A DNA stretch of 64,000 nucleotides from Candidatus Latescibacterota bacterium (GTDB lineage: Bacteria; Latescibacterota; UBA2968; GCA-2709665), in NCBI GenBank assembly GCA_963667175.2, contig CAXXXF010000006.1, forward strand, positions 32,001-96,000, written 5' to 3'. The notes below the pieces were generated by a model. The model had not been told where the DNA came from. It worked only from the letters and a program-made list of their open reading frames with translations, and made no database searches. This document shows positions 34,938 to 64,000 of this stretch, piece by piece. Made by a program: the position numbers and the translations under genes. The first letter of the stretch is position 1. Each line of letters begins with the position of its first letter.

Positions 34938-34979
34938 GATGTCGTATCTCGGCCGCGATTTACTATGCAGGCTGCTGTT

Positions 34980-44625: not shown

Positions 44626-44640
44626 TACTCCGAATCACAC

Positions 44641-45670: not shown

Positions 45671-45766
45671 TGATCAGGACTTCGCCCACTCGACAACAGT
45701 TTGCAGGTTGTTTTTTTGGCTCGTCACGGGTTTGTCTTGCTCCAAAACAGGACAGACGGCCCTTGC

Positions 45767-45810
45767 GTGAAACGTCCCGGTCACTTGCGAACTTGCCCGC
45801 ACGCAGTTAC
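45767..45810 (-). repeat. attC-like half site
   Basis: gtgaaacgtcccggtcacttgcgaac; right arm missing. Confidence 0.5.
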
Positions 45811-45841
45811 GTTTCCCCTTACAGCGGGAAGTCCGCATCGT

Positions 45842-46654: not shown

Positions 46655-46902
46655 ATGATGTGTCCAGTCTGAGCCGGGCACGGACGTGTTCCAGGAAGTG
46701 CCAGACCTGTTCCCTTACCGCAGCAATCTCAATTCCGCGCACATCCTCATCCGATCTCAAGGAAGGTTTTGACAGGGATCTCTGCGAAGCGTCGGGCGGC
46801 CTCTTCCAGAACGTCCACCTCCCGCGGAATAACACGGAAAGAGAACGAGATCTCGTAAACCTCGGGGAGTTGGTAGATGCTGTTCAAGGTTCTGCCCCAG
46901 CA

Positions 46903-47553
46903 CTAAGTCTGCATCAGTTCATGGATCAGCGGCGGGACCTGGCGGATATCGGTCAGTTGCCGGAATGCGCCGGTGAAGTCCAGGCCGCGCGTCAGCCCCT
47001 GCGGTATGACGATGCAGCGCAGCCCTGCCGCCAGTGCGGCGCGCAGCCCGCGGTCCGAGTCTTCGACTACGACGCACTCGGCGGCGCTGAGGCCGTTTTG
47101 CCGCATGGCCGTGAGGTAGGGCTCGGGATCGGGCTTGGAATTCCGGTATTCTTCGCGCACGAGCGTAAAATCGATGCAGTCCAGCAGGCCGGTGCCGGCG
47201 TGGATGATCTCAAAGTGCTCCCGCCGCGAACTGGTGACGATGCCCATGCGCACCGTGCCGTGGAGTTCGCGCAGCACCTGGCGGGCGCCGTCGATGACGG
47301 GTACGCCGGCGCGCAAGAGTTCGGTGTAGCGGGCGTTTCGCCTGATGCGGGCAGGTTCCAGCGCCTGTTCGTCTATGCCGTGTTCGGCGCCGACCGTGTT
47401 AAAGCCGCCGCTGGCCTTGAGGAAGAACTCGATGAAACGGGCTTCGCTCAGGCGCACGCCGAGGGGTTCCAGGGTTTCGCGGCAGGCCTGGTAGTACAGG
47501 CCTTCGGTGTCGACCAGGACGCCGTCGTTGTCCCAGAGAATGGCTTTCAGCAT
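46903..47553 (-). CDS. HAD family phosphatase
   Basis: WDNDGVLVDTE, KPDPEPY and VEDS. Confidence 0.92.
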   Translation of the reverse strand: MLKAILWDNDGVLVDTEGLYYQACRETLEPLGVRLSEARFIEFFLKASGGFNTVGAEHGIDEQALEPARIRRNARYTELLRAGVPVIDGARQVLRELHGTVRMGIVTSSRREHFEIIHAGTGLLDCIDFTLVREEYRNSKPDPEPYLTAMRQNGLSAAECVVVEDSDRGLRAALAAGLRCIVIPQGLTRGLDFTGAFRQLTDIRQVPPLIHELMQT

Positions 47554-47645
47554 AGCGCCTTATATCCTTTCCACTGCGCGGAAGTCGAAGCAGGCCATCG
47601 TTCGCGCCCGCGGCAAACCCTTCCGCAACGAGTCGAAGATCCTGC

Positions 47646-48959: not shown

Positions 48960-49118
48960 TATTCCCTCCTTTGGGGTGGCAGGGACGATTCACGTTCACG
49001 TTCCCGCCGTGCGCGAATCGCGAATGCGCGAAGGCGCGGCAGTACGCAAGCCGGGCACGGGCGTGTCATATGATTTGCCAGCCTCGGATTCTGTGGGGCC
49101 TCTCAGGCACCGGGAGAT

Positions 49119-49907
49119 TTAAACTCTGGTCTCCACGAGTGCTCCTACATCGTCGTCGCCGAACAGCCATCCAGTGTCATCGTTTCCAAAGCGCTCGTTG
49201 ATCTCGTGCGCGTTGGGAAGCAATGCGTAGGTTTCCGGCGTATTTATCTTCGACCTGCGAGGGTCAAGGTGGAGGGCAAGCTTGTCAACATCAGGCGACT
49301 CAAGCCCCAGAAAGTTGAAGATACCTTTGGCAACGACGCGACTCTTCTTGATGTCTTCAGTGTAAAGCTCCTCATAGAACACCTTCAAGGTACTGCCTCG
49401 CGGGCGCTGCTCTATCACGTTACTGTAATAGTCTCTGAGTTCCGTCGCGTATTCGAGACCGTCCGCGATCTTCTTCAAGGAGACTGGCTTCAGATTCCGG
49501 TAGATTCGCCTGGTTTCCTCATTCAAGTCCGACATCTGCCAGACTTTCGTTTGTTCGGCGATGCATCCGGAGACTTCGGCTCGCAGCAAATTAGCCCTTT
49601 GCAGGAAGAGGACTGTGGCGTCAGCAGAAAGCAACAGATGGGTGTATAACTCTTTTGGAAGTTGGTAGCTGAGGATCTTTATCCCGTTGTACCTGGCGAA
49701 GAGATCGTCAAGGGCTTTCTCAAGCGACGGAACGTCCTCAATGAAATCCACGTAGTTCGTCTCACCCGGGTTTTCCCTCGCATATCCATGCCAAAAGGGC
49801 TCGAGAGCGAAATTCAATCGAGGATGTGTCTGAAGAACACGATACAGCGTCGTACTTCCGCTTCGGCCGTGCGCAAAGAGAACAGTTCGTGTGGGAGGAC
49901 TTTCCAT
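49119..49907 (-). CDS. Sulfotransferase-like (Stf0-like) protein
   Basis: HGRSGSTTL PAPS-binding loop, LQRANLLR and VFYEEL. Confidence 0.75.
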   Translation of the reverse strand: MESPPTRTVLFAHGRSGSTTLYRVLQTHPRLNFALEPFWHGYARENPGETNYVDFIEDVPSLEKALDDLFARYNGIKILSYQLPKELYTHLLLSADATVLFLQRANLLRAEVSGCIAEQTKVWQMSDLNEETRRIYRNLKPVSLKKIADGLEYATELRDYYSNVIEQRPRGSTLKVFYEELYTEDIKKSRVVAKGIFNFLGLESPDVDKLALHLDPRRSKINTPETYALLPNAHEINERFGNDDTGWLFGDDDVGALVETRV

Positions 49908-49924
49908 CAAAGTCTCTGCCTGGT

Positions 49925-52060
49925 TCAGTCTCCGGCCTCTGTCCACTGGTACACGTGGACCTCCAGTGGCAGGAACAGATCGATGAACTCACGAGACTCG
50001 CTCTGCGCCATGCGATCCTCGAACAGCACCCTGGGCTGAACCGGTCTGTCGAACCGCCACGTGCCCAGGACCAGGGCCGGTTCCACGTTGACCGCGATCA
50101 GGGTGTGGACCCCGTTGTGCAGCCGCTCGATGAAGTGAATGGCGTCGCCCTCCTGCTCGAGCTTCACGGACCGTACCCGGGCGCCCGCCGCCAGTGTCGG
50201 GGCCAGGTGTCGCACCTCGCTGGCGACCTTGAGCACCTCGGTCCATTGCCGCGGATAGATGGCCACGTCGTCGGTGTACTCCGTGCCGGGGATCTCGCCC
50301 CCGGGCGCATAGAACAGCAGCCCTTTGACACCCCTCGTCAGGGCGAGGTAGTTCATGGACCGGATCTCCTCGCGACTGGGCCGGAAACCCCCTTCGAGGG
50401 TTACGACCTCGCCGCGCTTGCTGTCGAGACGATAGTCGAAGGCCTGGGAGATGAACCACACATGCTTGCCCTTGCCCTCCACCCGCGCTGCCTCGAAGGC
50501 ATCGTCGAGGACCGGCTCGTAGATCGAGGTGATCGAGTCGTCGGGTAGCAGCGGGTTCAGGATGGGGTAGCCGTAAACGAAGTAGGCATCGCTGAGTCTC
50601 CCACCCCAGGTGAGCATGAAGATGACCGGGTGGTCCCTGTCGTACCGCCGGATGAGCTCGTAGGTCTCGGTCGCCAGGGGAGACTGGCTGTCGCTGGCGT
50701 ACTCGTTCCACCATCCCAGCGTGGCCGGGTGGTCCTTCGCCTGCTCCACCACCTCCGTGAGCCGCCCGGGCTCGCCTCTGCCAAGGGCCAGCGAGGCATA
50801 GTACACGTGCACCAGCCCCTTCATCCCGAGATCCAGCAGATCGTCCAGCATCTCCCCGGCGCCTTCGCCGATCAGCTTGTAGTTGATCCCGGCCTCGGCC
50901 GCCTGGGCGATGTAGGGCATCCTGCTCGTGGGAGAGACGTTCGACGAGTAGATTCCCACCGGAAAAAAGGGCTCGCCGTTGACGCGAAACACGTCCCCGT
51001 CGAAACGCGACTTCAATGGCGCCGGCTCGTTGACGCCGAAGCGCCAGCGCAGGCGATTGCCGGCGTTGCCGGCGCGGTCGGTGACGACCACCTCCACCTG
51101 GTGGATGCCGTCCTCCAGGGCTCCCGTCTCCGAGAAGGTGAATCCGCCCTCCGCTACGGCGGCGCCGGCGGTGACGTCCTCGCCGTCCAGCAGGACCCGC
51201 GCGGAGGCGACCTCGATGCCCGAGCCCTCGTCATGGAAGACGGCCGAGATGACCGGCGAACCGTCGACCCTCGCGTCGGGCGCGGGGCTGGGGAGCACGA
51301 GCGCCGGCGGGCTGGTGTCCCTCTTCACCACCGGCGTGGTCTGCGCCATCAGGCGATCCCGCATCGATATCCTCAGTTCCTTTTCCGCCTCGTATTGAGC
51401 GGCGATCTCCCGGTCGGACAGGGCGCGGTTGTACACCCGGACGTCGTCGATCTGACCCGTGAAGTGGCCGCCCAGGCCGGAGCCGTAAAAGCTGGCCCCG
51501 ATATACATCGGCGCCTCCAGGGCGCCGGTCACGAAGGGCTCATCGTACCGCCCTCTCAGGCCGCCGTTCACGTAGACCCTGATCCCGTCGCCGTCGTACG
51601 TGCCGGCCAGGTGAAACCAACTGTCCTGTTTGACGCCTCCGCCGGCGGCGCTCTTGCCGTGCTCTGGACACTCCACCAGGGAGAACCGGACCGCGTTCCG
51701 GCCGAGGCTGAGCCGGTAGTTCTGGCGCAGCGTGCTGCAACCGTTCTTCGACAGTACGGTCTGCCCGGATATGACGGGCGTGTTCACCCAGCAGGTCACC
51801 GTGACCGCATCGGAGAGTCTCAGCATCTCCGAGTCCGGGATCTCCACGTAGTCATCCACCCCGTCGAAGCGGAGGGCGTAGCCCTGATCCAGTGCCACGT
51901 ACTCGGCCCCGTGAATGGCGCCCTGGAGGCCGTGGCCCGAGGCATCGCCGGCCACGGAGCCGGCCCCCTCATCGAACATGTAGTGCGCCACGAGGCCATC
52001 CTCCCCCGCCGCGGCGCCGACGGCGAGGGAGAGGAGGATCAACCCTATCTTCGTTCCCAT
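49925..52060 (-). CDS. Secreted LamG-domain protein with Ig-like and glycoside hydrolase-like regions
   Basis: Signal peptide; WFHLAGTYDG...YVNG...FTGQIDDVRVYNRALS; VNGEPFFPVGIY. Confidence 0.82.
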   Translation of the reverse strand: MGTKIGLILLSLAVGAAAGEDGLVAHYMFDEGAGSVAGDASGHGLQGAIHGAEYVALDQGYALRFDGVDDYVEIPDSEMLRLSDAVTVTCWVNTPVISGQTVLSKNGCSTLRQNYRLSLGRNAVRFSLVECPEHGKSAAGGGVKQDSWFHLAGTYDGDGIRVYVNGGLRGRYDEPFVTGALEAPMYIGASFYGSGLGGHFTGQIDDVRVYNRALSDREIAAQYEAEKELRISMRDRLMAQTTPVVKRDTSPPALVLPSPAPDARVDGSPVISAVFHDEGSGIEVASARVLLDGEDVTAGAAVAEGGFTFSETGALEDGIHQVEVVVTDRAGNAGNRLRWRFGVNEPAPLKSRFDGDVFRVNGEPFFPVGIYSSNVSPTSRMPYIAQAAEAGINYKLIGEGAGEMLDDLLDLGMKGLVHVYYASLALGRGEPGRLTEVVEQAKDHPATLGWWNEYASDSQSPLATETYELIRRYDRDHPVIFMLTWGGRLSDAYFVYGYPILNPLLPDDSITSIYEPVLDDAFEAARVEGKGKHVWFISQAFDYRLDSKRGEVVTLEGGFRPSREEIRSMNYLALTRGVKGLLFYAPGGEIPGTEYTDDVAIYPRQWTEVLKVASEVRHLAPTLAAGARVRSVKLEQEGDAIHFIERLHNGVHTLIAVNVEPALVLGTWRFDRPVQPRVLFEDRMAQSESREFIDLFLPLEVHVYQWTEAGD

Positions 52061-52213
52061 ATTGACACTCGCATCTCCGAAAGGTCTGACTTGCGTTCCG
52101 CGATGGTATTTACAACCCTACATCCACACGTAAGGATCGTTCGACGGTGCCGAGCAGCGCCACAGGCAGGCGCGTGACAACTCCAAACCGGCAGCCATCT
52201 CAATTCGGCATTC

Positions 52214-52307
52214 GCCTGACGTTTCGCCGGTTTGCGAACCCCGGGAGAGGGTTGCCCGAAGGGTCAAGGCGCGAACAGCGCCGCAGCGCAACGCCGCGCT
52301 GTTACAA
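52214..52307 (-). repeat. attC-like site
   Basis: gcctgacgtttcgccggtttgcgaaccc ... gcagcgcaacgccgcgctgttacaa. Confidence 0.85.
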
Positions 52308-52327
52308 GATGAGGAGGGAATTCCACC

Positions 52328-52356
52328 TTGACAAGTGTCACGTTACACCTTACACT
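52328..52356 (+). promoter_or_regulatory. higBA sigma70 promoter with operator-like palindrome
   Basis: TTGACA-17 nt-TACACT, 6 nt before GTG; gtgtcacgttacac in the spacer. Confidence 0.82.
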
Positions 52357-52362
52357 TTGTCG

Positions 52363-52644
52363 GTGATTAAGACATTTGCAGACAAGGAAACCCAACGCAT
52401 TTACCGCACCGGCGAATCCAGGAGGTTGCCCGTCGACCTGGTGCGAAGAGCAATCCGCCGCCTAGATTACATCGACCTCGCCAACACGTTGAATGATCTG
52501 AGAGTTCCATCTGGCAACCGCCTGCACCGGTTGAAGAAAGACCGCGAGGGACAACACGCCATCGCCATCAACGAACAATGGCGCGTCTGTTTTCGGTTTG
52601 TCGACGGGGACGCTTACGACGTAGAAATCACGGACTATCACTGA
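52363..52644 (+). CDS. higB: HigB toxin (RelE/ParE superfamily)
   Basis: IKTFADKET...LRVPSGNRLHRLKKDREGQHAIAINEQWRVCFRF...VEITDYH. Confidence 0.93.
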   Translation: MIKTFADKETQRIYRTGESRRLPVDLVRRAIRRLDYIDLANTLNDLRVPSGNRLHRLKKDREGQHAIAINEQWRVCFRFVDGDAYDVEITDYH

Positions 52645-52656
52645 AAGGAGCATCCC

Positions 52657-52971
52657 ATGGCCATCACAAATACACAAAAACGCGCCATCCCGCCAACTCA
52701 TCCTGGCGAGATGCTGCGTGAGGATTTCTTGCCGGATTATGCGCAAACAGTGACTTCCCTGGCGGACGCATTGGGTGTATCCCGTCAAACGATAAATGAG
52801 CTTCTGCGGGAGCGGCGCGCCATCTCGCCGATCATGGCATTGAAACTTGGCCGCTTTTTTGGAAACTCTCCGGAATTCTGGATGAAGGCCCAAAACAAAC
52901 GAGATCTTTGGGAATCAGAGCAGCGACATCAAGGCGAGTTGGCGGACATCGAACCGCTCGCTATTCCGTAG
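52657..52971 (+). CDS. higA: HigA antitoxin
   Basis: PTHPGEMLREDFL, HTH region, FFGNSPEFW. Confidence 0.93.
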   Translation: MAITNTQKRAIPPTHPGEMLREDFLPDYAQTVTSLADALGVSRQTINELLRERRAISPIMALKLGRFFGNSPEFWMKAQNKRDLWESEQRHQGELADIEPLAIP

Positions 52972-53007
52972 ACACCTTCCCCTGCACAAACCCCTTCCCT
53001 CTTTTGC

Positions 53008-53102
53008 TCGTAACGTTTTTCGGTTGCCGAACCCCGAGCTTGTCGAGGGGTTGCCAAAGGCCAAGGCGGCGCAGCCGCCGCAGTGGCAACCGGTTGTTAC
53101 CG
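53008..53102 (-). repeat. attC-like site
   Basis: tcgtaacgtt ... cggttgcc/ggcaaccg arms ... gttaccg. Confidence 0.87.
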
Positions 53103-53118
53103 GATGTGAGATCTCGAC

Positions 53119-53862
53119 CTACCCAAACCCGTTCGTACGTATCCATTCGATTGAGGACGAAATTCCCTGGTCAATTGCTTCCAAGCACCACACGGCCTCC
53201 GGCGCATACTCCAGAAGAGCACTGCATACCTCACCAATAGGAATTGTCCCTTGATCAAGAGAAAGGTGCTCGTCGGACTCTCCGTGATTGTTGTGCAGGT
53301 GAACCCACCCGATTCTCGGTCCAAGTCGTTCGATCCACGCTATCGGAGGCTCACGAGAGTTGCAATGGCAGTGCCCAATATCGAGGCACACGTCGACTCG
53401 CGGATCATTGATCGTGTCGATCACTTCAGCGAGTAGGACGGCATCCCTCTCAAGCATGTTCTCAACATGGTAGCGGACAGATGCTTCCTTGCCGTTAAGA
53501 AAGTCATGCCAGAACGCAACACATCGGCGCAACCAATTCTGCGGTGCGCTGGTCCCCGGGACATATCCGTGGTGCAGGATGATGTCAGGACATTCGAGTT
53601 CACGGGCAAAGCCATACGCCAATTCGAATCGATGCCTGGTCACCTCCCGGATCAGGGGATCATAGCTTCCGGCGCACAGATCGCCGAAAGGACCGTGCAG
53701 TGACCGTGGATGAAGATCCCCCAGAGCTATCTGCAAACCGGGCACCTTCTCTGACTCGAGGAAAGACTGGATCTCGATCCCATATCCATGTTGCCGACAA
53801 ACTGCGGCCAGCGTGAGGTCATCGACAGCGACCATAATGCAATGTGGTTTGGAGCTCGTCAT
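53119..53862 (-). CDS. Sugar phosphate isomerase/epimerase (AP endonuclease 2-like TIM barrel)
   Basis: HVEN, CLDIGH and VHLHNNHGESDEHL. Confidence 0.88.
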   Translation of the reverse strand: MTSSKPHCIMVAVDDLTLAAVCRQHGYGIEIQSFLESEKVPGLQIALGDLHPRSLHGPFGDLCAGSYDPLIREVTRHRFELAYGFARELECPDIILHHGYVPGTSAPQNWLRRCVAFWHDFLNGKEASVRYHVENMLERDAVLLAEVIDTINDPRVDVCLDIGHCHCNSREPPIAWIERLGPRIGWVHLHNNHGESDEHLSLDQGTIPIGEVCSALLEYAPEAVWCLEAIDQGISSSIEWIRTNGFG

Positions 53863-53881
53863 ACTTCCCAAAACTCATTTC

Positions 53882-54017
53882 CGGTAACGTCCTCACAATT
53901 GCCGAAGCCGCCCAGTTTTTTTAGGGCGGTTTGGGTGAACATTGGCAGCCTTTTTGCGCCTTTGGCTTCTGCAATACGGATGACAATGTGAACTGGCAAT
54001 TGTGAGGACCGATATAC
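53882..54017 (-). repeat. Long attC-like site with a 15 bp perfect inverted repeat
   Basis: cggtaac followed by gtcctcacaattgcc ... ggcaattgtgaggac. Confidence 0.75.
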
Positions 54018-54329
54018 GTTTCGTCTGGCAAATTGCCTCCTACAAGTGAATCTCCAAAACCCCGCGTCGCCAACGTCGACGCCGTCATCTCCTGGGTCAG
54101 GCGAGATGCGATTTTCCGCTAACGGTCGGTGTGGCCGATGCGGCCGCACATCAGGAAACAGATTAGGTTTTTTCACCATCAGGCCAACAATTCAGATGCG
54201 GCCATTTTGGTTGGGTTGAGGTTGGGGTGGGTCTCGGCCGCATATTGTTAAGTGTTGTTGCAGATTGGGTGGGGTGAATTTGCTTGGACGACAAGGCCGC
54301 TTCTACTCAGATCATAGCCACCGATAGGA

Positions 54330-55079
54330 TTAAGAGCGTTTGTAGAATTTCAACAGCCACGCCTCACTTGGATGATGGGCCGCTCTGATCGCCTCGATAA
54401 CTCGTTGGTAGTCGAACTCAACATGCCGGCGAACGACCTGATATCCGGATTCGTCTGCATCAAGGATCGCGTATTTGGCTCGAAGATCAGCCGTCATGGG
54501 GTTGGAGAGGCTACCGAGAGTTACATAACGAACGCCGTCGAGGGTCAAGTCAGATTCCAAGTGCGCATGGCCTGCGAATATCACGTCCGCTTGGCAATCA
54601 GGGAACATCTCCTCTGCCTCCTTTGCGGCTGTGCCTTCAACAACGACGAGTTCATCGCTGGCTAGAGACGCATGGACACCGAGCAGACGCGTCCCATCCG
54701 GCAATGACATGCGCTGTTCAAAAGGCAGGTCTCTAAGCCACCCGAACCATCCCGTTGCGAATATCGCACCTCGCGCCCAGCCGTTGCCCTGTTCGACACT
54801 CACTAGAGAATTTAGCAGGCGGGGATCGCTCATCACGCGTTCGACGGACGGACCACGCCGTCCTCCCGTAATTGCGTAGCGATCTGTATTTCCGGATACA
54901 CACCGCGTTGATGGTAGTTTGGAGATCCGCTCCACCACGCCGACGGGATCAAAGCCTTGATTAAAGAGATCTCCAAGAATCCAGTAACTATCGACGCCGC
55001 CCTGTGATCTGATATCATCTAAAACCGCATCTAGCGCAATTGAATTCCCGTGGATGTCAGAGAGCATAGCGATACGCAT
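54330..55079 (-). CDS. Metallophosphoesterase family protein
   Basis: SDIHGN, LGD, GNTD and GHAH. Confidence 0.9.
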   Translation of the reverse strand: MRIAMLSDIHGNSIALDAVLDDIRSQGGVDSYWILGDLFNQGFDPVGVVERISKLPSTRCVSGNTDRYAITGGRRGPSVERVMSDPRLLNSLVSVEQGNGWARGAIFATGWFGWLRDLPFEQRMSLPDGTRLLGVHASLASDELVVVEGTAAKEAEEMFPDCQADVIFAGHAHLESDLTLDGVRYVTLGSLSNPMTADLRAKYAILDADESGYQVVRRHVEFDYQRVIEAIRAAHHPSEAWLLKFYKRS

Positions 55080-55198
55080 AAATTTTCACCTGATCAAACT
55101 CCTTCGGGCTACTTGCAGTCGGTCTGGGTAGGAGAAGCGCTATCTCAAAAGAGAAAGTTGCGCCACTTTCTGTGCCTTTTTGGGGTGGGGGAAATCTG

Positions 55199-55316
55199 CA
55201 ATTGCACTTAACTACGGTATTACCGAAAAGTTACGGTAATCCGTGCCTGATCCGAAGATCTGCGAACGTTCGGGAACATTCCACGCTGAAATTTGTAGCC
55301 CGAACATGTTCAGGAA
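55199..55316. repeat. Dispersed ~110 bp element, copy 2
   Basis: Matches 15681..15790. Confidence 0.75.
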
Positions 55317-55368
55317 TGCCGCCTATGGCGGCATCGTCGCTAATCAAAAACTGCCTCCCTTTCTTCCA

Positions 55369-55701
55369 TCAATGCATCCAGCGGGGTCCCTCGAAGGGTC
55401 CCAATTCAAACGATACGCCACAACTTTCAATATGCGCGATGGCCTCTTCGAAACCCTCCACTTCCAACGAGAGTCCCGCGCTGAGCACGGCTGGCGGTTC
55501 GCCACGAAACCAGGTCGTGGTCACCGCGAGAGTATCGAGGGGGCCTACAGCGTACTCGATGAAGCCGTCATCCCCATCGGGGCCGCGCGGAGGGTCGATG
55601 ACATTGGGTTCCGGCAGGCGCAGAACCGTCTCGTAGAATTCACGCGCGCGCTTTAGACTCGTCACCGGGTGGCCGACAAGAGCGAATTCTCTGATTTTCA
55701 C
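55369..55701 (-). pseudogene. VOC/glyoxalase family gene, 3'-truncated
   Basis: PVTSLKRAREFYETVL...LSLEVE; lacks the terminal DPDGN-type strand. Confidence 0.7.
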
Positions 55702-56013
55702 GCAACTCTCCTCTTCAGTTCAATCTTTATTATTTTCAACTCCTTGCGGATGATCGGATATTGTCGATTTTCCAAATTGGCGAGTTTCGGCTTGGGAGGA
55801 TACCGTCGGACTCGACGGCGCACCTGAGAACGTCCGGGCTGTTTTCTGCTCCGTCAAACGCAGCGGGGCCTACGTCGCACGACGTAAGCCCCTTTCGTTT
55901 CACCTCTTCGATGAGGTCCAACCAACGCCACCTTCATCGGCCCTATCCCTTCCGGCACGCCATCGCCCGGAAGGACGAGGAGAAGGGCAGTGTCGACCTG
56001 CTCCTGTTCCGGT

Positions 56014-57066
56014 CTATAGCAGATGGTCCAGAATGAGATTGGTTGATTCAACAATGCGTTGATCGCGAGGCCGTAGATCCGGTTCGAACGCCTTGCCCGT
56101 TAGATGTTGCAGACCCTGAATGTAGCGGACAGCGATTTCTCCCGCCTGCTCGTCCGTGAACTGCTGGTCCTTCTCGGTAACCATTCCTCGCGCGAATTCT
56201 TTCGAAAACGAAACCGGTTTGCCACCCCGCGTCAGCGGCTGTCCGTCGTCGTCCATACGCCAGAAGCGGCTCGAGTCCATCGTGTACAATTCGTCTGCCG
56301 CCACGATCCGATCTTCTGTGTTGACCCCGTGTTCCGTTTTCGTGTCCACGAGGATCATTCCGCGCTCGGCGAGATACTGGGAGACCATCCCGAAAGCCAT
56401 GATGGATGCGTTGCGGAGCTCGTTGTATTGGCCGGGCGTGCAGACATTGTTGTCAAAGAGATACTGCGGATCGATCGTACGATCCACCTTGTCCTTGGTG
56501 CTCGGCGTATCCATCAGGTATGGCAGTACGCCATTGGCGGACAACTGATCCACGTCGATCTGATGGCCCGCATAGTCGAGCGTCGACTCACCCGCCTCCC
56601 TGGCTTGCAGCCAGTGCTGATAGAGGGACGTCGAGGTGCTGCTCTCGGCGTTATACATCCGAAGGACGTTCTCCACCATGATCAGCTTCAAATTCTCTGC
56701 CGGAATCACCGTCGAACTGGCCTTAAGACCAGGCACCTTGAACTGAGAACTGCCCAATACGTGTTCCACCAAACGCAGCATGTGGTCATGATTGATCGCC
56801 AGCACCTGATCCTTAAACGGGATGGCCCCGCGATTCACATCGTGCGTCGATATCCGGTTGTTCCGGAACATCAGCCGGATCGGCTGGCCTTCGCTGGTCG
56901 CGAGGCTCTCGCCAAACACCGAGTCCGATACCTTCCCCTCCAGGATGGTGCAACCATCGAGACGCGGAAGATCACCATCGGCGATAATCTGCTTGATCGG
57001 ACGCCCCTCATTGACGCGTGCACCGTTCTCGGCCACTAATACTCTGATCTGGGTATCATTTAGCAT
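56014..57066 (-). CDS. purC: SAICAR synthetase-like protein
   Basis: GKVSD, RISTHDV, IPFKDQVL, TPSTK, ILVDTKTEHG and DELYTMDSSRFW. Confidence 0.82.
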   Translation of the reverse strand: MLNDTQIRVLVAENGARVNEGRPIKQIIADGDLPRLDGCTILEGKVSDSVFGESLATSEGQPIRLMFRNNRISTHDVNRGAIPFKDQVLAINHDHMLRLVEHVLGSSQFKVPGLKASSTVIPAENLKLIMVENVLRMYNAESSTSTSLYQHWLQAREAGESTLDYAGHQIDVDQLSANGVLPYLMDTPSTKDKVDRTIDPQYLFDNNVCTPGQYNELRNASIMAFGMVSQYLAERGMILVDTKTEHGVNTEDRIVAADELYTMDSSRFWRMDDDGQPLTRGGKPVSFSKEFARGMVTEKDQQFTDEQAGEIAVRYIQGLQHLTGKAFEPDLRPRDQRIVESTNLILDHLL

Positions 57067-57368
57067 GGGTACAGTCCTGTTCAGGTGAAGGCCTCTGGGG
57101 GGAGACGCTCAAGGGAACAGCGATCGTCGTAGAGGCTGGCTTTAGGAAGCGGATGGTCGTCAGGTCAAAGCCGGCGGGATGCCATGCGGGGGGAGTATAT
57201 GGGCGCAGCAATTACCAGTCGGCTTGTTACAGTGCTTAAGATACACGGTGTGTTCGCGCAGAGCAAGGAAAACCGGCTCGGACGTGGATTGGGTGAGGTA
57301 AATCCAAGCTTTCGGGTCTTGTGCACAATCAGCGGGGGTTGGGTGGTTGGGTATCCTCCGCCGCTTGC

Positions 57369-57452
57369 GTGTGACGTCTAAGTGCCCCCGAACCGCGTAG
57401 CGGTTGCGCGAAGGGGCACAAGCCCCGAAGCCGGGGGTGCCGTTGTTAGCCG
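57369..57452 (-). repeat. attC-like site
   Basis: gtgtgacgt ... ccccg/cgggg arms, aaccgcgtagcggtt hairpin, gttgttagccg. Confidence 0.8.
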
Positions 57453-57541
57453 ATGCGGCGCGCCCCGGGTCCAGACACAGCCATCAAAGTGGGTCAGTCT
57501 AGCGCACACCATACACGGCCCCGCTTGGTTTTTCCTGACTC

Positions 57542-58345
57542 TCAATTGGGAAAGCTGATAATCTCCACAGCTGATACAGAGATTACTCCGTGGTCATTGG
57601 TGACGTCACAAAATAGCATCTCCTGCTCGTTCAAAGAGGCCCTTTGGATAATTCGCCTGGCGGTGTCACAAACGACGGAACCGCCAAGAACACGGCCTTC
57701 AAGTATTGGGGTGACCTGGGAAACATAGTTGGACTGGATGACCGGCACATTGAACAATCCTGTAATCGCTTTCGCCCCCTCTCCGCACCCGTCTCGGGTC
57801 ATCTCGCCATCCTGGTTCGTTTTGCTCGTCGCGACACTTGGCCACAGAATCACGTCGCTGTCCTCTAGGCCTCGGCCTACCACGTGATCCAGAAAACTCG
57901 ATTCGGCGCAGAAGACAGAACCAAAAAGAATACCGTGGATGTCTACAGGAGACCGCTCCTCTGACTCTACAAAACCCCATAGTTTCTTCCAACCCTCGAC
58001 CAAGAATGTCCTGGAGCCAGCAAGTACCGGTCCTTCCCCCGGCTGCAGTAGCAACAGCGCATTGAGGAATCCTCTCTTCGAGAGAAAGGGCGAGCCAACC
58101 AGCGTGTAAACTCCAATTTCTTGGGTAACCATGCTCAGCTCTTCCAAACTCGTCTCGATTTGGCCGTACCAATCAGGCTCTTTGAAGAATTCGTGTAAGT
58201 GTTGATCATACCCGGTCAGCATCATCTCTGGGAAAACTATCAACTCAGCCTCATGGGATGCCGCCCTTTGCATCCACGCTTCAACAGTCGCGGTATTTTC
58301 TTCAACTGTTGCCGACATTGCGGGTTGTATTGAACAGACTCTCAT
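57542..58345 (-). CDS. Carbon-nitrogen hydrolase (nitrilase superfamily)
   Basis: LIVFPEMMLTGY and VFCAE. Confidence 0.85.
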   Translation of the reverse strand: MRVCSIQPAMSATVEENTATVEAWMQRAASHEAELIVFPEMMLTGYDQHLHEFFKEPDWYGQIETSLEELSMVTQEIGVYTLVGSPFLSKRGFLNALLLLQPGEGPVLAGSRTFLVEGWKKLWGFVESEERSPVDIHGILFGSVFCAESSFLDHVVGRGLEDSDVILWPSVATSKTNQDGEMTRDGCGEGAKAITGLFNVPVIQSNYVSQVTPILEGRVLGGSVVCDTARRIIQRASLNEQEMLFCDVTNDHGVISVSAVEIISFPN

Positions 58346-58440
58346 TTGATTTCTGGATAAGTAGGGCTGAGGTGTGTCATGGTCTTGCTCTTGTGCTCCG
58401 TAACCCGGGTTGGGAGGGGTTCCGTATTCTGCGCCGCATT

Positions 58441-58530
58441 CGGCTAACGTTTGACGGTTTGCGAATCCCGAAGGGGTTGCCAAAGGCCAAGGAGCGTAAG
58501 CGAACTAGCGCAACACCGTGTTGTTAGCCG
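58441..58530 (-). repeat. attC-like site (best preserved)
   Basis: Minus strand GGCTAAC-5 nt-GGTGTTGC ... GCAAACC-7 nt-GTTAGCC: R''/L''/L'/R' layout with an extra base in L''. Confidence 0.9.
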
Positions 58531-58586
58531 TCGGCACGCGCCACCAAAGCCATAACAGCCCTCTTTTCTATCTTCTTTGAGTTTAG

Positions 58587-59084
58587 TCAAAGGTCACCAA
58601 CTTCGCAGGGGTCCGGTACATTACTCTGTTCAGTTCCGATCCGTTTCACCATTTCAAGATACCAGGGAGCGAATCCACATTCCCGATAAAATGCCAGGAT
58701 ATCATCGAACCGCTTCGCGGCCGAGTAGAGCCGCATGTGACTGAATCCACTGACCTCTGCCCTAACTTGGACAGCATTGACCAACTGCCGGCCTAACCCA
58801 CGATGACGAGATCCGGTACGCACATACAGTTCAACGATTTCAAGAATACGGCTGCCTTCAGGGAATACACACTCGTCTCCATACGGCCGTTCGACGCAAT
58901 AGATGAATCCTACAGGCTTACAGCCATCCATCGCCAGAAAGAGCCAATCCAAGTCGCGGTCGTTCCACACCTCCACCGAATCGGGCCCATAGCCCCATAT
59001 TGCGCTCACGGACGCCAAGTCATTCTGCATCAAGAGAATCCCGGTTATATCCCCGTCGTTTCCTTTACGTATTGTAACAGTCAT
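58587..59084 (-). CDS. GNAT family N-acetyltransferase
   Basis: LYVRTGSRHRGLG and AFYRECGF. Confidence 0.88.
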   Translation of the reverse strand: MTVTIRKGNDGDITGILLMQNDLASVSAIWGYGPDSVEVWNDRDLDWLFLAMDGCKPVGFIYCVERPYGDECVFPEGSRILEIVELYVRTGSRHRGLGRQLVNAVQVRAEVSGFSHMRLYSAAKRFDDILAFYRECGFAPWYLEMVKRIGTEQSNVPDPCEVGDL

Positions 59085-59889
59085 CTGCCCCAGCCTCTCC
59101 ATGAAGCCAACTAAGGCCACTCGGCCAACCCTGGTCGGCCTTAGACAGGATGGCGCGATAGTAGTTATTCAATCCAGTAACGGTATAGTCAAACATCCTG
59201 GAATCGCGGACGTAGTAGTTGGCGATACCGCCTGCCGTGAACTGCTCTGGGTGCGTATACCAGGCTTCGGGACTTTGGTGCCGGACGACTAATTCGGCGT
59301 CATTCATGAGTTCCCACGTGGTTGCAGGAGTGCAATCCTCCCGTTGATAGACTACGCCCGAACTCGTGTCGACTGCTCCCCAGGCCCCAGAACGATGGAC
59401 TTCGACGATCACATGTCCACTGTAGGCTGCATTTAGATTGAAGAGATTCACAATGCGACACGGAAAGCCGGCAACTTGATATAGCGCACACCCTACTCGA
59501 GCCACGTCGGTGCACCAATCAGAACCCCTTTTGATGATCTGCTCTTCTGTTCCTCCAAATCTCATCGAGGACAGTCCGCCACTTGGCTTCTTTTCGCGCA
59601 AACCGAGCGTGGTTTGAGCGATAGCAGCAACCTGCTGCATACGATCGACGACTAGCGATTTCGTCTTAGAAAGAAAGGTCTCAAGACCTGGACGAGATCC
59701 TGCGACGTAGCCGATATCCAGGTCGGTAAAACCGTCGTAAAGGTAAGGAGCTGTGTCATCGCAGAGCCTCAACATATTGGATACGACCTCGCGGTCCACG
59801 CTTCCTTGAGCATGAGTGTCGTTCTCGAGCATGCACTGGTATGCACTGCCGAAAGCTTTAGGGCCTGTAAATCGTGTAAGGTTCGTCAT
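59065..59889 (-). CDS. Transglutaminase-like domain protein
   Basis: WCTDVARV...GHVIVEV...WGAVD triad. Confidence 0.82.
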   Translation of the reverse strand: MTNLTRFTGPKAFGSAYQCMLENDTHAQGSVDREVVSNMLRLCDDTAPYLYDGFTDLDIGYVAGSRPGLETFLSKTKSLVVDRMQQVAAIAQTTLGLREKKPSGGLSSMRFGGTEEQIIKRGSDWCTDVARVGCALYQVAGFPCRIVNLFNLNAAYSGHVIVEVHRSGAWGAVDTSSGVVYQREDCTPATTWELMNDAELVVRHQSPEAWYTHPEQFTAGGIANYYVRDSRMFDYTVTGLNNYYRAILSKADQGWPSGLSWLHGEAGADDCYNT

Positions 59890-59979
59890 TGTCTTGTTGA
59901 ACAATTGCCTCTACGGAAGAATCCCGGGGCAGTCAGGGTTGAACCACCGGTTGTGCTATTAGGTTTGGCGCGAGCTTTC

Positions 59980-60064
59980 GACTAACGTTCTTGCCGTGTG
60001 CGAACTGCCGAAGACAGTGGGACGAAGGGGCGGATGCACCAGGCCGCACGCGGTCGAGTTACAC
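59980..60064 (-). repeat. attC-like site
   Basis: gactaacgtt ... ccgtgtgcg/cgcacgcgg arms ... gttacac containing the NUDIX stop codon. Confidence 0.85.
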
Positions 60065-60565
60065 GTTGCCGTGGCCGGGTGGACGTAACCTGTCGTTCAT
60101 AGCCGGAAGCTCTTCAATCTTGCCGGTATTCAGACGTTCATTGAGTTCCCAGAGTGCGATTCGGTTGCTTTCCCATGTGAGCAGCCTTGTAGCTTCCTTA
60201 AAGGATAACCAGCTCACCTTGTCATGTTCATGTGACAAATCAAGTTCTTGACCGCTTACATCAACCGCAAATGAGTATTCAGGCACGACAAAGATGTCCT
60301 TGGACCAGTGTTCTGTTGGTGAGAATACCGTCTTGGGGACGGATGCGCGAGAATCCAGCCGAAAGAAACGTGCCCCCTTTGGAATGCCTGCCTCCTCTTC
60401 TGCCTCACGCCGTGCGGTTTGCTCTGCCGTCTCATCGTCTTCGGCGCCACCCGCAATGAACTGCCACATAGAGTCATCCGCCCTATGGAAGACGGCAAAC
60501 TGGTATCCGACACTCTCACTCTCCCTGAACGGTATCACGATCACTTGTAGTGGTTGCCTTGCCAT
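60059..60565 (-). CDS. NUDIX hydrolase
   Basis: GGAEDDETAEQTARREAEEEAGI and LSHEH. Confidence 0.92.
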   Translation of the reverse strand: MARQPLQVIVIPFRESESVGYQFAVFHRADDSMWQFIAGGAEDDETAEQTARREAEEEAGIPKGARFFRLDSRASVPKTVFSPTEHWSKDIFVVPEYSFAVDVSGQELDLSHEHDKVSWLSFKEATRLLTWESNRIALWELNERLNTGKIEELPAMNDRLRPPGHGNV

Positions 60566-60638
60566 GCCAACTATTCTCTCGGGCTGGGTCGCTCAAACTC
60601 GTCCATCACAGCAGAAATATAGCCCCGCCACGGTTTTC

Positions 60639-60723
60639 GTGTAACGTTCCCGCCACTTGCGAACCGCCGAGCGAAACGAGGTGGTTGCCGTCAGGCCAGG
60701 GAGCGCAAGTGGACGTGTTAGCG
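60639..60723 (-). repeat. attC-like site
   Basis: gtgtaacgtt ... ccacttgcg/cgcaagtgg arms ... gttagcg containing the upstream stop codon. Confidence 0.88.
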
Positions 60724-61239
60724 GCCTGTGCGGTCGCTGGCAGGCTTAAATCCCTGGACACCGATCTCGTCGTGTAGAATCCGATCAACGATGCAGCCAA
60801 GTTGCTGCACTTTCGCAAATTCGGCAGAGAGTTTCTCAATCAGGTCATCGTCGCCGAAGCGAACGTCTCGACTGAAGACCTTCATCGTACTGTTCGACAC
60901 CTTGTATCCCTTCCATGTCTCAATCATACCGCGTGCTTCTTTCACAAAAGGCCGGCTGAAAGCAGCGCGCTTCAATCGAGTTCCCGGAAATGTGTCTTGA
61001 TGAAGCACGTGCATGACAACACGTGTCTTCTTCTGTTGCATTTCACGGTCAGTAATCCAGGTCTCGAAATGGATACCCATTCCGTCTTGATTGAACCATA
61101 GGTCCCTGAACAGTTGAAGCCCTGATCCACCACTCTTGGGAAACGTGTCCAGTCGCGTTTCCCACCCATCCGAAAACCAGTCTGCCGTACGCAAATTACC
61201 GTCCAGCTTCTCCATCAAGGACGAATAGTCACTCCCCAT
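60718..61239 (-). CDS. Hypothetical protein
   Basis: 173 aa ORF with GGAGAGG RBS overlapping the upstream gene end; stop lies in the attC core. Confidence 0.7.
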   Translation of the reverse strand: MGSDYSSLMEKLDGNLRTADWFSDGWETRLDTFPKSGGSGLQLFRDLWFNQDGMGIHFETWITDREMQQKKTRVVMHVLHQDTFPGTRLKRAAFSRPFVKEARGMIETWKGYKVSNSTMKVFSRDVRFGDDDLIEKLSAEFAKVQQLGCIVDRILHDEIGVQGFKPASDRTGR

Positions 61240-62347
61240 CGGCCTCTCCTCTGCTTTCTGACGGGTGATCTGTCACTGCAGGCAAGACATGCCTTGTTAG
61301 GATGCGAAAGACCTGGTTGGCGACTGCGGATCCGTAATTTCCGCCCGTGAAGACGATCACCATCTCAACATCGGGAATCACGAACAGGAACTGACCGCCA
61401 TTTCCTTCGGCAACGAAGGTTTTGACAGGACGTCCGGCAACACTGAAGCGGTCCAGCCACCAGCCAAACCCATATCGTTCGTTTCCAAACTGAGGGCTGA
61501 CAGATTCTTCGATCCATTCCGCAGGCAGTACCTCAACTCCGTTCCACACCCCACGGTCCAGGTACAGCTGACCGATCTTGGCCAAATCACGGGGTCTGAG
61601 ACGAAGACCTGCATGCGTTTGCGGCAATCCTGTCTTTGTCCGCCACCAATCACTCCGAACGATGCCCAGAGGTCCAAAGAGATATTCGTTGGCGAAAGCA
61701 TCTGCGTGCAGACCGGAAACCTTCTTGATAACCCCCGCAAGAAGAATCGCACATCCGCTATTGTAGTTAAACCGTCTGCCGGGTTCGTCAGACATGTCAG
61801 CTGACAGTACATATCCGATGAAGTCGTCACTGTTCTCCATCTGAGCCTCCGAGTTTGGAGAACCAGGCTCAGATTTATGCGCTCCCGATTGGTCCCACCT
61901 GAACCCGGAAGTCATCGTCAGCAGATGTCCCAAAGTGATCTGTTTTTTCTCTTCGGTTATGTGCGCGGAGTAATCCGGGAAGAATTGATGCATGGGCACG
62001 TCAACAGAATCGATGAAGCCCTTGTCAATGGCTATTCCAACGAGCGCGGACGTTACACTCTTTGAAACAGAGCGTGTGTCATGTAGCTGGTCCTTGTCGA
62101 ATACGACATGCCCCCTCCACCCATCGGCGCCCGCAAAGTACTCCTCCAGTACCAGAATGCCTCGCCGAGCAATCAGAAAGCTGTGGAGATTCTTGTACTC
62201 CCCATCCCGGATCCTGGCCAGACACTCCGCTATCGTATCCGCATCCAGACCTTGTCCAGCCAGAGTACCAGTCCTCCAACCATCGGATGCATCAGCATGA
62301 CCTGTGCTGCACAGAGTGAGGAACATTGACAAGAACAGACGGTTCAC
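61229..62347 (-). CDS. Serine hydrolase, beta-lactamase/penicillin-binding protein family, with signal peptide
   Basis: SVSK (SxxK), HLLTMTSG, FNYNS, LRPRDLAKIG and GNGGQ. Confidence 0.9.
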   Translation of the reverse strand: MNRLFLSMFLTLCSTGHADASDGWRTGTLAGQGLDADTIAECLARIRDGEYKNLHSFLIARRGILVLEEYFAGADGWRGHVVFDKDQLHDTRSVSKSVTSALVGIAIDKGFIDSVDVPMHQFFPDYSAHITEEKKQITLGHLLTMTSGFRWDQSGAHKSEPGSPNSEAQMENSDDFIGYVLSADMSDEPGRRFNYNSGCAILLAGVIKKVSGLHADAFANEYLFGPLGIVRSDWWRTKTGLPQTHAGLRLRPRDLAKIGQLYLDRGVWNGVEVLPAEWIEESVSPQFGNERYGFGWWLDRFSVAGRPVKTFVAEGNGGQFLFVIPDVEMVIVFTGGNYGSAVANQVFRILTRHVLPAVTDHPSESRGEADGE

Positions 62348-62356
62348 CGATCTGAC

Positions 62357-62500
62357 TCCTAACAGCCCGTTGAAAAAGTCCATCCGGGCTACCTGCCTGG
62401 CCGCCCGCCTGCGCCGAGTGCCGCTCGGCAGGCAGGGCAGACAGGCGTCCGGCCCTTGTGACCGAATACCGGCGTTGCCTGCCTGCAGCAGGCAGGCGCT
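62357..62500. repeat. Lone attC core followed by an IS/MITE-like end and nested CCTGCC..GGCAGG hairpins
   Basis: tcctaac|agcccgttgaaaaagtcc ... cctgcctgg...gcagacagg ... cctgcctgcagcaggcagg. Confidence 0.5.
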
Positions 62501-62521
62501 CCCTCCCGGAACTACATGGAT

Positions 62522-63481
62522 CTACCCCGGAAACTCAGTCCTCAACAGCGGTTGAACACGATACCTCCACTGGCTCTCAATCAAGGAATGGTCTGGTGAT
62601 TTTGCGGCTGCTTCCAGGATATTCGCAGCTGCCCGACTAGCCATGAGGGTAGGTATGTACTTTTCCAAATCCATGCTGAGTGAACGAACTTCACGATACC
62701 CCTTCAATAACGCATCAGTCCTCTCCTGGAAACCGGGACGACCGTAGGTGCCGGACAGGATCACAGCGATGTCATACAAATAGTAGCCGAATCCGCAGTC
62801 GCCGAAATCAATCGCGATGGCGTGACCCGGTCGAAAGAGGACATTTCCGAAACTGAGGTCTGCGTGAATGAGGCCGAACATCTCTGTGTCGCCGCCCATC
62901 TGTTGTTCCGCTTCTGTCAGCCGACCATAGACCGTTTCCAGATCGCGGCGAACAGGAGCCGGTCCGATCTCATCTAAAGGAAACTTCGAACGGAAACCAA
63001 AAAGACCCTCAGCGTCATACGTAGGGCGATCAAAACCCGTGGGTGGCGACCACGCTTCAGAGTGATTGTGCAACTCACCCGCAACGCGGCCAAGCAATTC
63101 GAAGTGCCGAGGCGATCGGTGGTCCTGATCCAGGATACGTCCGTTTAGCCAGGAAGTAACGGATACCGGGAATGGTCCGGGCACGCCTGGAACATCTGCC
63201 ACGATAACTCTTTTGCCGTCAGGCGATCTATAGGGCTGTGGAACGGAGAGCGTGGTATCGTGGCAGAGAGCCTCCAGCCAATCCAATTCCGATTCAATGA
63301 TCCGGGGCGCCTTCTTGTCACGGTGAATCCGCACTCGATAATCGCCTGAATCGCAGGTCCACTTTGACTTGCGACAACGGCATTCTCCCAAACCCAGTTC
63401 GCGGAGCGCGGCCTTTGCCACCTTGTGTAACCTACGGATCCGTCCCTGGTGAGTTAGTTCTTCGAAGCTCCGTATGGCCAT
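62522..63481 (-). CDS. Phosphotransferase (homoserine kinase type II/APH family)
   Basis: HADLSFGN and IDFGDCG. Confidence 0.88.
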   Translation of the reverse strand: MAIRSFEELTHQGRIRRLHKVAKAALRELGLGECRCRKSKWTCDSGDYRVRIHRDKKAPRIIESELDWLEALCHDTTLSVPQPYRSPDGKRVIVADVPGVPGPFPVSVTSWLNGRILDQDHRSPRHFELLGRVAGELHNHSEAWSPPTGFDRPTYDAEGLFGFRSKFPLDEIGPAPVRRDLETVYGRLTEAEQQMGGDTEMFGLIHADLSFGNVLFRPGHAIAIDFGDCGFGYYLYDIAVILSGTYGRPGFQERTDALLKGYREVRSLSMDLEKYIPTLMASRAAANILEAAAKSPDHSLIESQWRYRVQPLLRTEFPG

Positions 63482-63569
63482 TCCGACCTCCACAAAAGCA
63501 CCGTCACCATCGGTGGAGTACCGACTCTCTCGCGTGCCGCGGGACCCGGTGTCCTGTCCCAGCAATGCC

Positions 63570-63670
63570 GCCTAACGTTCTCGCCACTTGCGAAGCCGCC
63601 GCAGGCAGTTGGGCGACCGAACTCAGCTTTTGCCGCGGCCGATCTCCGGTTGCTCGGCAAGGCAACAATC
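63570..63670 (-). repeat. attC-like site (left arm clear, right arm degenerate)
   Basis: gcctaacgttctcgccacttgcgaagcc, nearly the same as the 60639 arm. Confidence 0.7.
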
Positions 63671-63751
63671 CGGCGCGATCAGCGCGATTATGGCCAATGC
63701 CAGAAGGGGAAATTGTTGGGTTGATGGAACTCTCGTGTTCGGGACTTCCAT

Positions 63752-64000
63752 TTACTTTTCGTGAATTCGTCCAACCGGAAGCAGTTCCACACCATCATCG
63801 ATGCCCTGCTTATCGCCCTCGATTTCTGCGTCGCCGTTTTTTGTGATACGACCGACAGCGAACCTGAAGCTGAAAAGGTCCGCGTGTTTGAATTGGAACT
63901 TAAGGCGCGCGGGTTTTCCGGCGTAATCCCCGGGAGTGAGTCCGGACTGCCACGTGACCGGGTGGTCGATTTCGTCACCCCGCAGTGGCTTGCAGTCGTT
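63752..64000 (-). CDS. 3' end of a beta-propeller glycoside hydrolase-like protein
   Basis: Own translation DCKPLRGDEIDHPVTWQS...ARLKFQFKHADLFSFRF resembles the C-terminus of 38673..40130. Confidence 0.7.
   Translation of the reverse strand, partial: NDCKPLRGDEIDHPVTWQSGLTPGDYAGKPARLKFQFKHADLFSFRFAVGRITKNGDAEIEGDKQGIDDGVELLPVGRIHEK

Follow-up and report, generated by a model that had tools for sequence, protein, structure and literature searches.

A decaying chromosomal cassette array in Candidatus Latescibacterota, probably assembled by an integron-like tyrosine recombinase without the IntI insertion

The cassette array and its complementary ends

The stretch of DNA analysed here (in the following the window, 64,000 nucleotides, positions 32,001 to 96,000 of contig CAXXXF010000006.1, or C6) belongs to a Candidatus Latescibacterota bacterium and holds the middle of an array of co-oriented gene cassettes with complementary ends, whose units were exchanged at the AAC/GTT triplets of attC-like sites. 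The array is decaying, and it was probably assembled by an integron-like tyrosine recombinase without the IntI insertion, which has since been deleted here. A covariance model of the sites (R1, built from 12 window sites) matched 18 times genome-wide, always on one strand and always within C6:34-102 kb, and a second model (R2, built from 145 hits) extends the range to C6:117 kb. According to a simple gene caller, 63 of the 66 genes with at least 90 codons in C6:30-102 kb lie on the minus strand. The cargo is typical of cassettes and includes GNAT, methyltransferase, NUDIX, phosphotransferase, phosphoesterase and toxin-antitoxin genes (Table 1).

An earlier note on this DNA had claimed that the downstream core of each gene matches its own upstream core, usually better than the partner in the same palindrome. 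The eight cores it named are all present with every coordinate exact, and the matches hold: 9/9 for its epimerase (53096/53880) and C-N hydrolase (57445/58440), 8/8 for NUDIX (60058/60638) and 7/8 for higBA (52301/53007). Two extra pairs, 33237/34102 and 34178/34846, match at 7/9 each and have variant triplets. For the four units the cognate pairing ranks best among 24 permutations. When these six units and two more are taken together, 40 of 48 non-triplet bases pair, compared to a non-cognate mean of 2.84/6 (exact p = 4/40320). Single core matches are not unique, and two of these eight cores prefer a foreign end: the higBA core fits the NUDIX upstream core at 8 and its own at 7 positions, and the GNAT/transglutaminase core fits the C-N hydrolase upstream core at 8 and its own at 7. 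Units were also picked by model without any hand choice, as every adjacent pair of covariance-model matches 250-2000 bp apart. Ten such units of the window genome pair at 3.0 of 4 bases versus 1.85 after shuffling (p 4.5e-4), and the cognate end wins over the palindrome partner in seven of them; shuffled pairings, named beforehand as a possible refutation, are clearly worse. In eight related genomes 84 non-duplicate units (92 before removal of duplicates, from 147 complete sites in the best 150 of 165 hits) gave 3.14 versus 1.81, a value exceeding all 20000 shuffles (p<1e-4).

The earlier note missed the array's extent, a unit with an attI-like upstream junction (54247/55210) and the reach of the pairing, which continues to about 14 bases past the triplet. 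The ends are thus complementary over about 17 bases, and position 8 on the plus (bottom) strand is a fixed T·G wobble. In 98 units the outer block (positions 9-14) pairs at 3.38/6 compared to 1.89 after shuffling, and position 8 is T·G in 69. This was replicated in 63 units from loci outside model building (3.59 versus 1.88, T·G in 44, p<1e-4). A canonical IntI array of Gemmatirosa (29 units) served as control; it pairs at 0.76-1.0 up to position 8 and at chance level further out, its outer block reaching 1.28 versus 1.50. A second canonical control (L140) had 7 usable sites only and was left out. A bulged base in the outer pairing was considered and rejected (shifted register 2.32 versus 2.15 shuffled, p 0.076); register 0 with the wobble holds instead. 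The R box pairs better in the circular than in the integrated form in 6/8 units; for the site at 54117..54253 the pairing p is 0.97 in the circular and 0.09 in the integrated form.

The sites have a 7×4 inner loop and a stem of 8-9 bp in which no extrahelical base is conserved; their top is branched and, on the bottom strand, rich in GNA mini-hairpins. The 7×4 loop without bulge is the commonest best fit, and 128 of 158 sites are bulge-free, whereas all 29 canonical control sites carry a bulge (28 of them as 6×5 with bulge). GNA loops number 364 on the bottom strand versus 65 on the other. The bottom strand folds more stably in 131/171 sites (20/24 in the window genome) and is presumably the substrate. 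Canonical attC sites are described with a 5-6 nt spacer per arm and an extrahelical base in L'' in the part of PMC5027507 drawn on here; the sites of this array do not have this geometry. R2 gave 1 weak match in 34 canonical control sites, and Rfam has no family for the sites, its sole report being a group II intron. Both the site geometry and the recombinase differ from those of a classical integron, as which the array had implicitly been taken. A group II intron with an intact reverse transcriptase/maturase (25689-27059) occupies window positions 25262-27216 on the plus strand, against the array direction; an insertion of this intron in an attC-like site was rejected, its flanks not being such a site.

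Table 1. Features of the array (window positions, unless C6 is given)
Feature	Position	Strand	Details
Co-oriented cassette array	at least C6:30-118 kb; window 1..64000 = its middle	-	20 R2 matches in window, all on +
Array head, attI-like site	C6:117714		outside window
Second, more decayed attI-like copy with recombinase-derived tail	15692..15879	-	
Three older attC-like sites	33153-33243, 34103-34184, 34848-34937	+	flank methyltransferase and GNAT cassettes; variant triplets
attC-like site	52214..52307	+	left triplet GAC 52218 (variant), right GTT 52301; 68.7 bits
higBA cassette	52220..53013	-	Pfam HigB, HTH_3; TIGR02607; ends 7/9
attC-like site	53008..53102	+	AAC 53012, GTT 53096; 50.8 bits
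Xylose-isomerase-like TIM-barrel cassette	53014..53887	-	gene 53119-53871; PF01261; ends 9/9
Long degenerate attC-like site	53882..54017	+	AAC 53886, 15-bp stem, right GAT 54011; found by hand, no model match
Long attC-like site	54117..54253	+	AAC 54121, GTT 54247; found by hand, no model match
Metallophosphoesterase cassette	54123..55211	-	gene 54330-55079; PF12850; ends 8/9, 15/18 plus two wobbles
attI-like site	55210..55339	-	triplet 55210-55212, conserved inverted repeat to ~55240, 127 bp to recombinase stop
Recombinase remnant	55340..55388	-	14 C-terminal codons plus stop; tblastn match of 86% to G013 protein residues 319-332; remainder deleted
SAICAR-synthetase-like cassette	55853..57374	-	gene 56014-57066; PF01259; ends 8/9
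attC-like site	57369..57451	+	GAC 57373, GTT 57445; 67.0 bits
C-N hydrolase cassette	57375..58447	-	gene 57542-58345; PF00795; ends 9/9, 17/18 with one gap
attC-like site	58442..58529	+	AAC 58446, GTT 58523; 62.2 bits
Two-gene unit, GNAT and transglutaminase-like	58448..59985	-	genes 58587-59120 and 59065-59904; ends 7/9
attC-like site	59980..60064	+	AAC 59984, GTT 60058; 59.8 bits
NUDIX cassette	59986..60644	-	gene 60059-60565; PF00293; ends 8/9
attC-like site	60639..60723	+	AAC 60643, GTT 60717; 55.5 bits

Movement of cassettes and decay of the array

Sites of this type occur in 13 of 14 congeners, and in both congeners that were checked the genes next to the array are those of the window genome. 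Variation in cassette order was looked for between congeners and found: among the 33 cassette families seen at least twice, 17 have different upstream neighbours in congeners. The site interior moves with the right-hand cassette (identity 0.76, compared to 0.62 in pairs sharing the left side and 0.57 in random pairs). Nine independent families share a left flank and differ on the right; their identity amounts to 0.72-1.0 up to the AAC and to 0.14-0.24 at +6 to +8, and three of them have an attC-like site at one place and an attI-like site at another. The variant triplets GAC and ATC (first/second bases) stay with the left flank or cassette. The sites are therefore composites with a crossover at AAC, the junction being resolved to the triplet and not to a single bond. 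Beyond this triplet and two consensus bases, the partner sites share no spacer homology.

Cassettes of the window follow this pattern. The C-N hydrolase cassette has a different upstream neighbour in congener G011, and the left flank of the SAICAR-synthetase-like cassette recurs in G009 with a different attC; this cassette carries the GTC/GAC variant triplet at both ends and has lost the interior of its own attC. A homologue of the TIM-barrel cassette is found in another genus of the family (G016, match to 53073-53893). Compensated variant cores with GAT and ATC at opposite ends were seen at 13184-14179 of the window, in G013 and in G007, and one such family changed its neighbour; this covariation (3 rows) rests on about two cassette families and was not counted as a test.

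The units had been proposed to be cassettes excised and integrated as circles. Their mobility and the joints at G^TT are borne out by the 17 rearranged and nine junction families; circular intermediates of these cassettes we infer. Four contig sets were examined, and none of the joints shown for them is a circle junction (another 27 joints lie outside those shown, and contigs drop rare forms). A skip from 52973 to 57383 in two contig sets was considered as an excision, but it is not located at AAC and resembles the G009 junction, and it was read as a deletion. As the window genome has no IntI and its array recombinase is reduced to 14 codons, it cannot make circles by itself, and a circle test by SOS induction and outward PCR is expected to be negative there. 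One contig set matching the window comes from a run labelled sponge metagenome; for the habitat, runs with small word shares were left out.

In the window genome the array is orphaned and is eroding from its distal end. The farther a site lies from the head, the lower is its score and the rarer an intact triplet (rho 0.45 and 0.47, p ~0.02), and the left triplet is AAC in 10/24 sites compared to 122/147 in relatives, which were sampled nearer to the head. Two repeat families of about 100-150 bp, MITE- or REP-like (miniature inverted-repeat transposable or repetitive extragenic palindromic elements), fill intergenic gaps at C6:6500-25000 (L005, L006) and at C6:104400; in the distal part with such repeats no attC-like site is left and the genes are still co-oriented. 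At 62358-62478 a short repeat combines very high contig depth with numerous loose ends; it is probably a small mobile element.

The higBA genes (52366-52644 and 52657-52971) lie on the plus strand, opposing the array direction, and this cassette may slow the loss of the array. A promoter-like site (TTGACA-17-TACACT) is located upstream of them at 52328, the promoter scan not rising above the shuffle count; a consensus scan of 52200-55500 for a Pc-type promoter gave none on the array strand. More toxin-antitoxin-like modules were seen in the window at 1712-2409, 8200-9037 and 11900-12140 (DUF4160/DUF2442; others, judged by eye, a similar pair and a HicA-like fragment).

Duplicate cassettes, whole or partial and 70-89% alike, are the pairs 21280-22262/27669-28337, 14299-14582/45966-46744, 1478-1630/10362-10515 and 29467-30155/34933-35103. 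Some cargo is large for cassettes, with blocks of several genes and host-like genes of 437 and 711 codons moving as units (window 47584-52514; L031, L019, L022, L026).

The receiving site and the recombinase

The window genome contains four copies of an attI-like sequence (window 15692 and 55210, C6:106361 and 117714), which is present in 12 of 14 congeners, too; its homology usually begins at T-AAC. At four loci and at the window copy the crossover triplet is located 127 bp after the stop codon of a recombinase gene. By its sequence this is a putative primary receiving site beside the recombinase. Its outer flank varies and equals the far end of the upstream cassette at 6/6 positions in six of nine cases in relatives. 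In the window genome the nearest model matches fit the attI-like flanks poorly (1-3/6), and the hand-found 54247 fits 55210 in 8/9; the metallophosphoesterase cassette sits inserted at this copy. Three cassettes adjoin the attI-like site in one place and an attC-like site elsewhere. Units of 2.7-4.6 kb adjoining attI-like copies have ends that match at 6/6.

The internal attI-like copies carry recombinase fragments with ragged ends. In G007 a near-whole recombinase gene with its site, 99% alike to that of G013, is found inside the array behind a toxin-antitoxin-like cassette. The recombinase plus its receiving site may therefore travel inside the array as cargo.

No IntI with the patch III insertion is found at the array or in the genome: the window genome gives XerC/D-like matches only and none to TIGR02249 (IntI) over the cut-off, and neither there nor in the 14 congeners was TIGR02249 matched at E 1e-50. 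Instead, a tyrosine recombinase or its remains, co-directional with the cassettes, stands at the array head of G011, G013, G015 and G038. Compared to IntI it has a 35-residue gap, its catalytic R-K-H-R-H-Y residues being intact. It scores 214 for TIGR02249 (cut-off 265), 218.6 for the XerA-like family NF040815 (cut-off 220), and 194 and 186 bits for the XerC and XerD families (cut-offs 335 and 330), to which it does not belong. In a phylogenetic tree (near-identical IS91 copies and pieces below 230 residues left out) it separates from the XerC/D of the window genome at 100/100; canonical IntI is placed weakly there (82/79, long branch), and no order of events is claimed. The best solved match is VchIntIA (2a3v), by sequence as well as by fold (model pLDDT 88). 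An intact copy with 376 residues is encoded in genome G088 (L040:7683-8813), and close relatives lie in records titled Candidatus Latescibacterota.

This short recombinase possesses an extra N-terminal domain. Eight of 11 members match PF07443 (best E 1.2e-5), the scores shown lying below the Pfam cut-off, and the comparison with the HARP domain of SMARCAL1 (4o66) gives E 0.0056. HARP, XPB and UvsW domains are fork-recognition domains. Fold comparison gave Z values of 5.6 for UvsW, 4.9 for XPB and 4.0 for 4o66, with a higher value (5.9) for the unrelated CASTOR2; Foldseek found no match at E 0.001, and the Atlas only unnamed clusters at 0.89.

A recombinase hidden in an assembly gap is unlikely, the head and the flanking gene being on one gap-free stretch (assembly 95% complete). 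The array head is crowded with insertion sequences (IS1380-like, IS3, IS21, IS1595; L007:11536-15680, L008:2329-10765), which are the likely cause of the recombinase deletion. It also holds an Abi_C gene and a lone Cas2-like gene.

Across the phylum, the short recombinase or its kin was detected in 27 of 168 genomes, IntI in 19 (over the cut-off in 17), and R2 sites in 72 of the 150 genomes sampled. Genomes with at least 10 sites contain the short recombinase in 12/28 cases. The scarcity of IntI in site-rich genomes (2/28) is close to the base rate and was therefore not used as an argument. Sites lie within 10 kb of 14 of the 23 short-recombinase loci not linked to IS91, with one orientation per group: eight are co-directional and 6/6 are divergent in the clade without the extra domain. 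No sites were detected near four XerC/D loci or two canonical IntI loci (0/4 and 0/2). The site model was trained on this lineage. Members of the clade that lacks the N-terminal extra domain stand, in the classical divergent orientation, at the head of well-kept arrays (L097, L098, L099, L102, L105, L106, L036). The canonical Gemmatirosa IntI (L139) is co-directional with its own 34-site array.

Readings of the array and known systems

Matching cassette ends are real, but as a footprint they are already known for integrons: according to the sections of Cury et al. (PMC4889954) cited here, integration yields chimeric attI/attC and attC/attC sites, and Nivina et al. (PMC5027507) locate, in the corresponding part of their paper, the crossover on the bottom strand in its folded form, between A and C of AAC. 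The footprint alone is thus routine, and the interest lies in the system behind it. The array fails two defining tests of a canonical integron, the IntI insertion and the attC geometry, while it is integron-like in its working. We consider it probable that a chromosomal cassette array with units exchanged at AAC/GTT was built by the insertion-less recombinase now deleted here; from its sequence and position, this short enzyme would have performed the cassette chemistry. On balance we also favour the broader view of a second integron class, in which insertion-less tyrosine recombinases read folded single-stranded sites by their long outer arm, T·G wobble and 7×4 loop, a HARP-like domain being optional.

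In such a system the cassette would be excised as a circle, and the bottom strand of the circle would fold so that both cassette ends form one long arm. At AAC, either inside the triplet or immediately behind it, the recombinase would exchange this one strand with the attI-like site, which is double-stranded. Replication might then resolve the junction, by analogy with IntI (PMC5027507); replicative resolution is proposed because the spacers of the partner sites are not homologous. The T·G wobble would mark the strand and replace the extrahelical bases read by IntI, and the HARP-like domain might bind the fork or branch of the folded site.

Several points weigh against this reading. The intact copy of the enzyme lies in another family (G088) and none in congeners, where the gene is always broken or absent (frameshifted in G011, N-terminus replaced in G013, no match at E 1e-60 in 12/14), and yet cassettes 97-99% alike occur there in different contexts. 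No short-recombinase match at E 1e-60 was obtained in 16 of the 28 site-rich genomes, and nine of the 23 recombinase loci are without site match (seven of them end at a contig edge close downstream); furthermore, kin are not independent in these counts. The outer block is marginal in the window genome alone (2.25 versus 1.56, p 0.019, n=12), and the canonical control is a single array, the 34-site array of Gemmatirosa. The resemblance to HARP is weak, with E 0.0056, Pfam scores under the cut-off and Z values of 4.0-5.6, and the same site type beside the domain-less clade (6/6) and IS91-linked recombinases (5/6, G020) means that the domain is not required. Finally, the part of Cury et al. (PMC4889954) considered here judges 21 insertion-less recombinases near attC sites not to be IntI.

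The most serious alternative, which we nevertheless regard as rather unlikely, is an ordinary CALIN (attC sites clustered without an integron-integrase), built by a canonical IntI that was lost or acted in trans, with the short recombinase as a bystander beside attI. Footprint and AAC crossover are indeed of integron type (PMC4889954 and PMC5027507, in the sections named above), IntI does occur over the cut-off in 17 of the 168 phylum genomes, no congener has an intact short recombinase, and the insertion is reported to be necessary for activity (PMC9668308, in a passage citing Messier and Roy). However, the geometry of the sites is non-canonical (7×4 loop, no extrahelical base, outer arm), R2 hardly recognises canonical sites and gives nothing at the two IntI loci, the receiving site keeps a constant distance of 127 bp downstream of the short recombinase gene, and insertion-less recombinases of three groups are found at array heads in consistent orientation.

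It is improbable that the short recombinase acts in the manner of Xer or Cre on double-stranded sites, with the hairpins being incidental. The protein is Xer-sized and comes close to the NF040815 cut-off, and the attI-like site resembles a conventional two-armed core. Partner sites without spacer homology beyond the triplet and two consensus bases do not fit this, nor do complementary ends whose T·G pair is possible on one strand only, the strand bias of GNA loops and folding energy, or the better pairing of the R box in the circular form.

Still less credence is given to an IS91-type rolling-circle element (recombinase plus Y2 transposase) that moves or builds the cassettes. In G020 such elements head or sit in several arrays (L109-L114), co-directional in 5/6 copies; five of six IS91-linked copies adjoin sites there, these sites being among the best kept, and the elements are possibly a mobile form of the platform. 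But none of the three copies beside transposases in G017 has sites, no such element stands at the array head in the genus, and the attI-like site follows a stand-alone recombinase. Chance matches that arise from a shared consensus and were selected by eye have practically nothing left to recommend them as an explanation: consensus bases do occupy core positions 1 and 5 (0.85 in non-cognate pairs), and two of eight cores prefer a foreign end, but permutations that keep the consensus refute this reading, both here (p 4.5e-4) and in 84 and 63 units elsewhere (p<1e-4).

The assembly by the insertion-less recombinase, which we prefer, challenges a working rule, as the IntI insertion is a requirement of integron finders and recombinases lacking it were not accepted as integron integrases. 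If the short enzyme is active, this rule hides a class of gene-capture platforms whose site type was found in 72 of 150 sampled phylum genomes. With a second integron class, single-strand recombination would either be older than the insertion or have evolved on two occasions, and the enzyme of many 'integrase-less' arrays would have been overlooked. With an active short enzyme, the origin of tyrosine recombinase action on folded single strands would become directly testable, since enzyme, receiving site and dozens of natural partner sites are known.

A literature search at the level of titles, with subscription journals outside its coverage, gave no paper describing such a system. An integron-like subgroup of tyrosine recombinases is described in PMC8138268, in which the insertion is not fully conserved, yet it is called essential for integron function; this paper contains no occurrence of 'attC'. 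The head recombinase belongs near this subgroup and the XerA-like family, scoring just under NF040815 and TIGR02249.

With sedentary chromosomal integrons, including the 'inverted integrase' group with its co-directional integrase, the array shares co-oriented single-gene cassettes, composite sites with the crossover at AAC/GTT, a single strand that folds, a tyrosine recombinase with a receiving site next to it, a toxin-antitoxin cassette against the array, and VchIntIA as closest structure. In contrast to these, its recombinase lacks the insertion of about 35 residues and has an extra N-terminal domain. The sites are 7×4 instead of the canonical 6×5 and have no conserved extrahelical base, and the pairing of their ends includes a T·G wobble and reaches position 14, compared to position 8 in the canonical control. 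In the sections of PMC12901181 cited, delta-attI-type cassettes of mobile integrons are similar in that attI-derived sites inside the array replace attC and receive cassettes; the internal copies here differ in carrying 3' fragments of the recombinase of varied length, up to a near-whole gene. As in CALIN, which are defined by at least two attC sites with no IntI nearby (PMC4889954 and PMC9024848, in the passages used), there are many sites (the 18 matches of the R1 model built here, which depart from canonical geometry), no IntI in the genome and signs of decay. Unlike in CALIN, the missing enzyme is apparently a non-IntI recombinase, of which the last 14 codons and the attI-like site remain.

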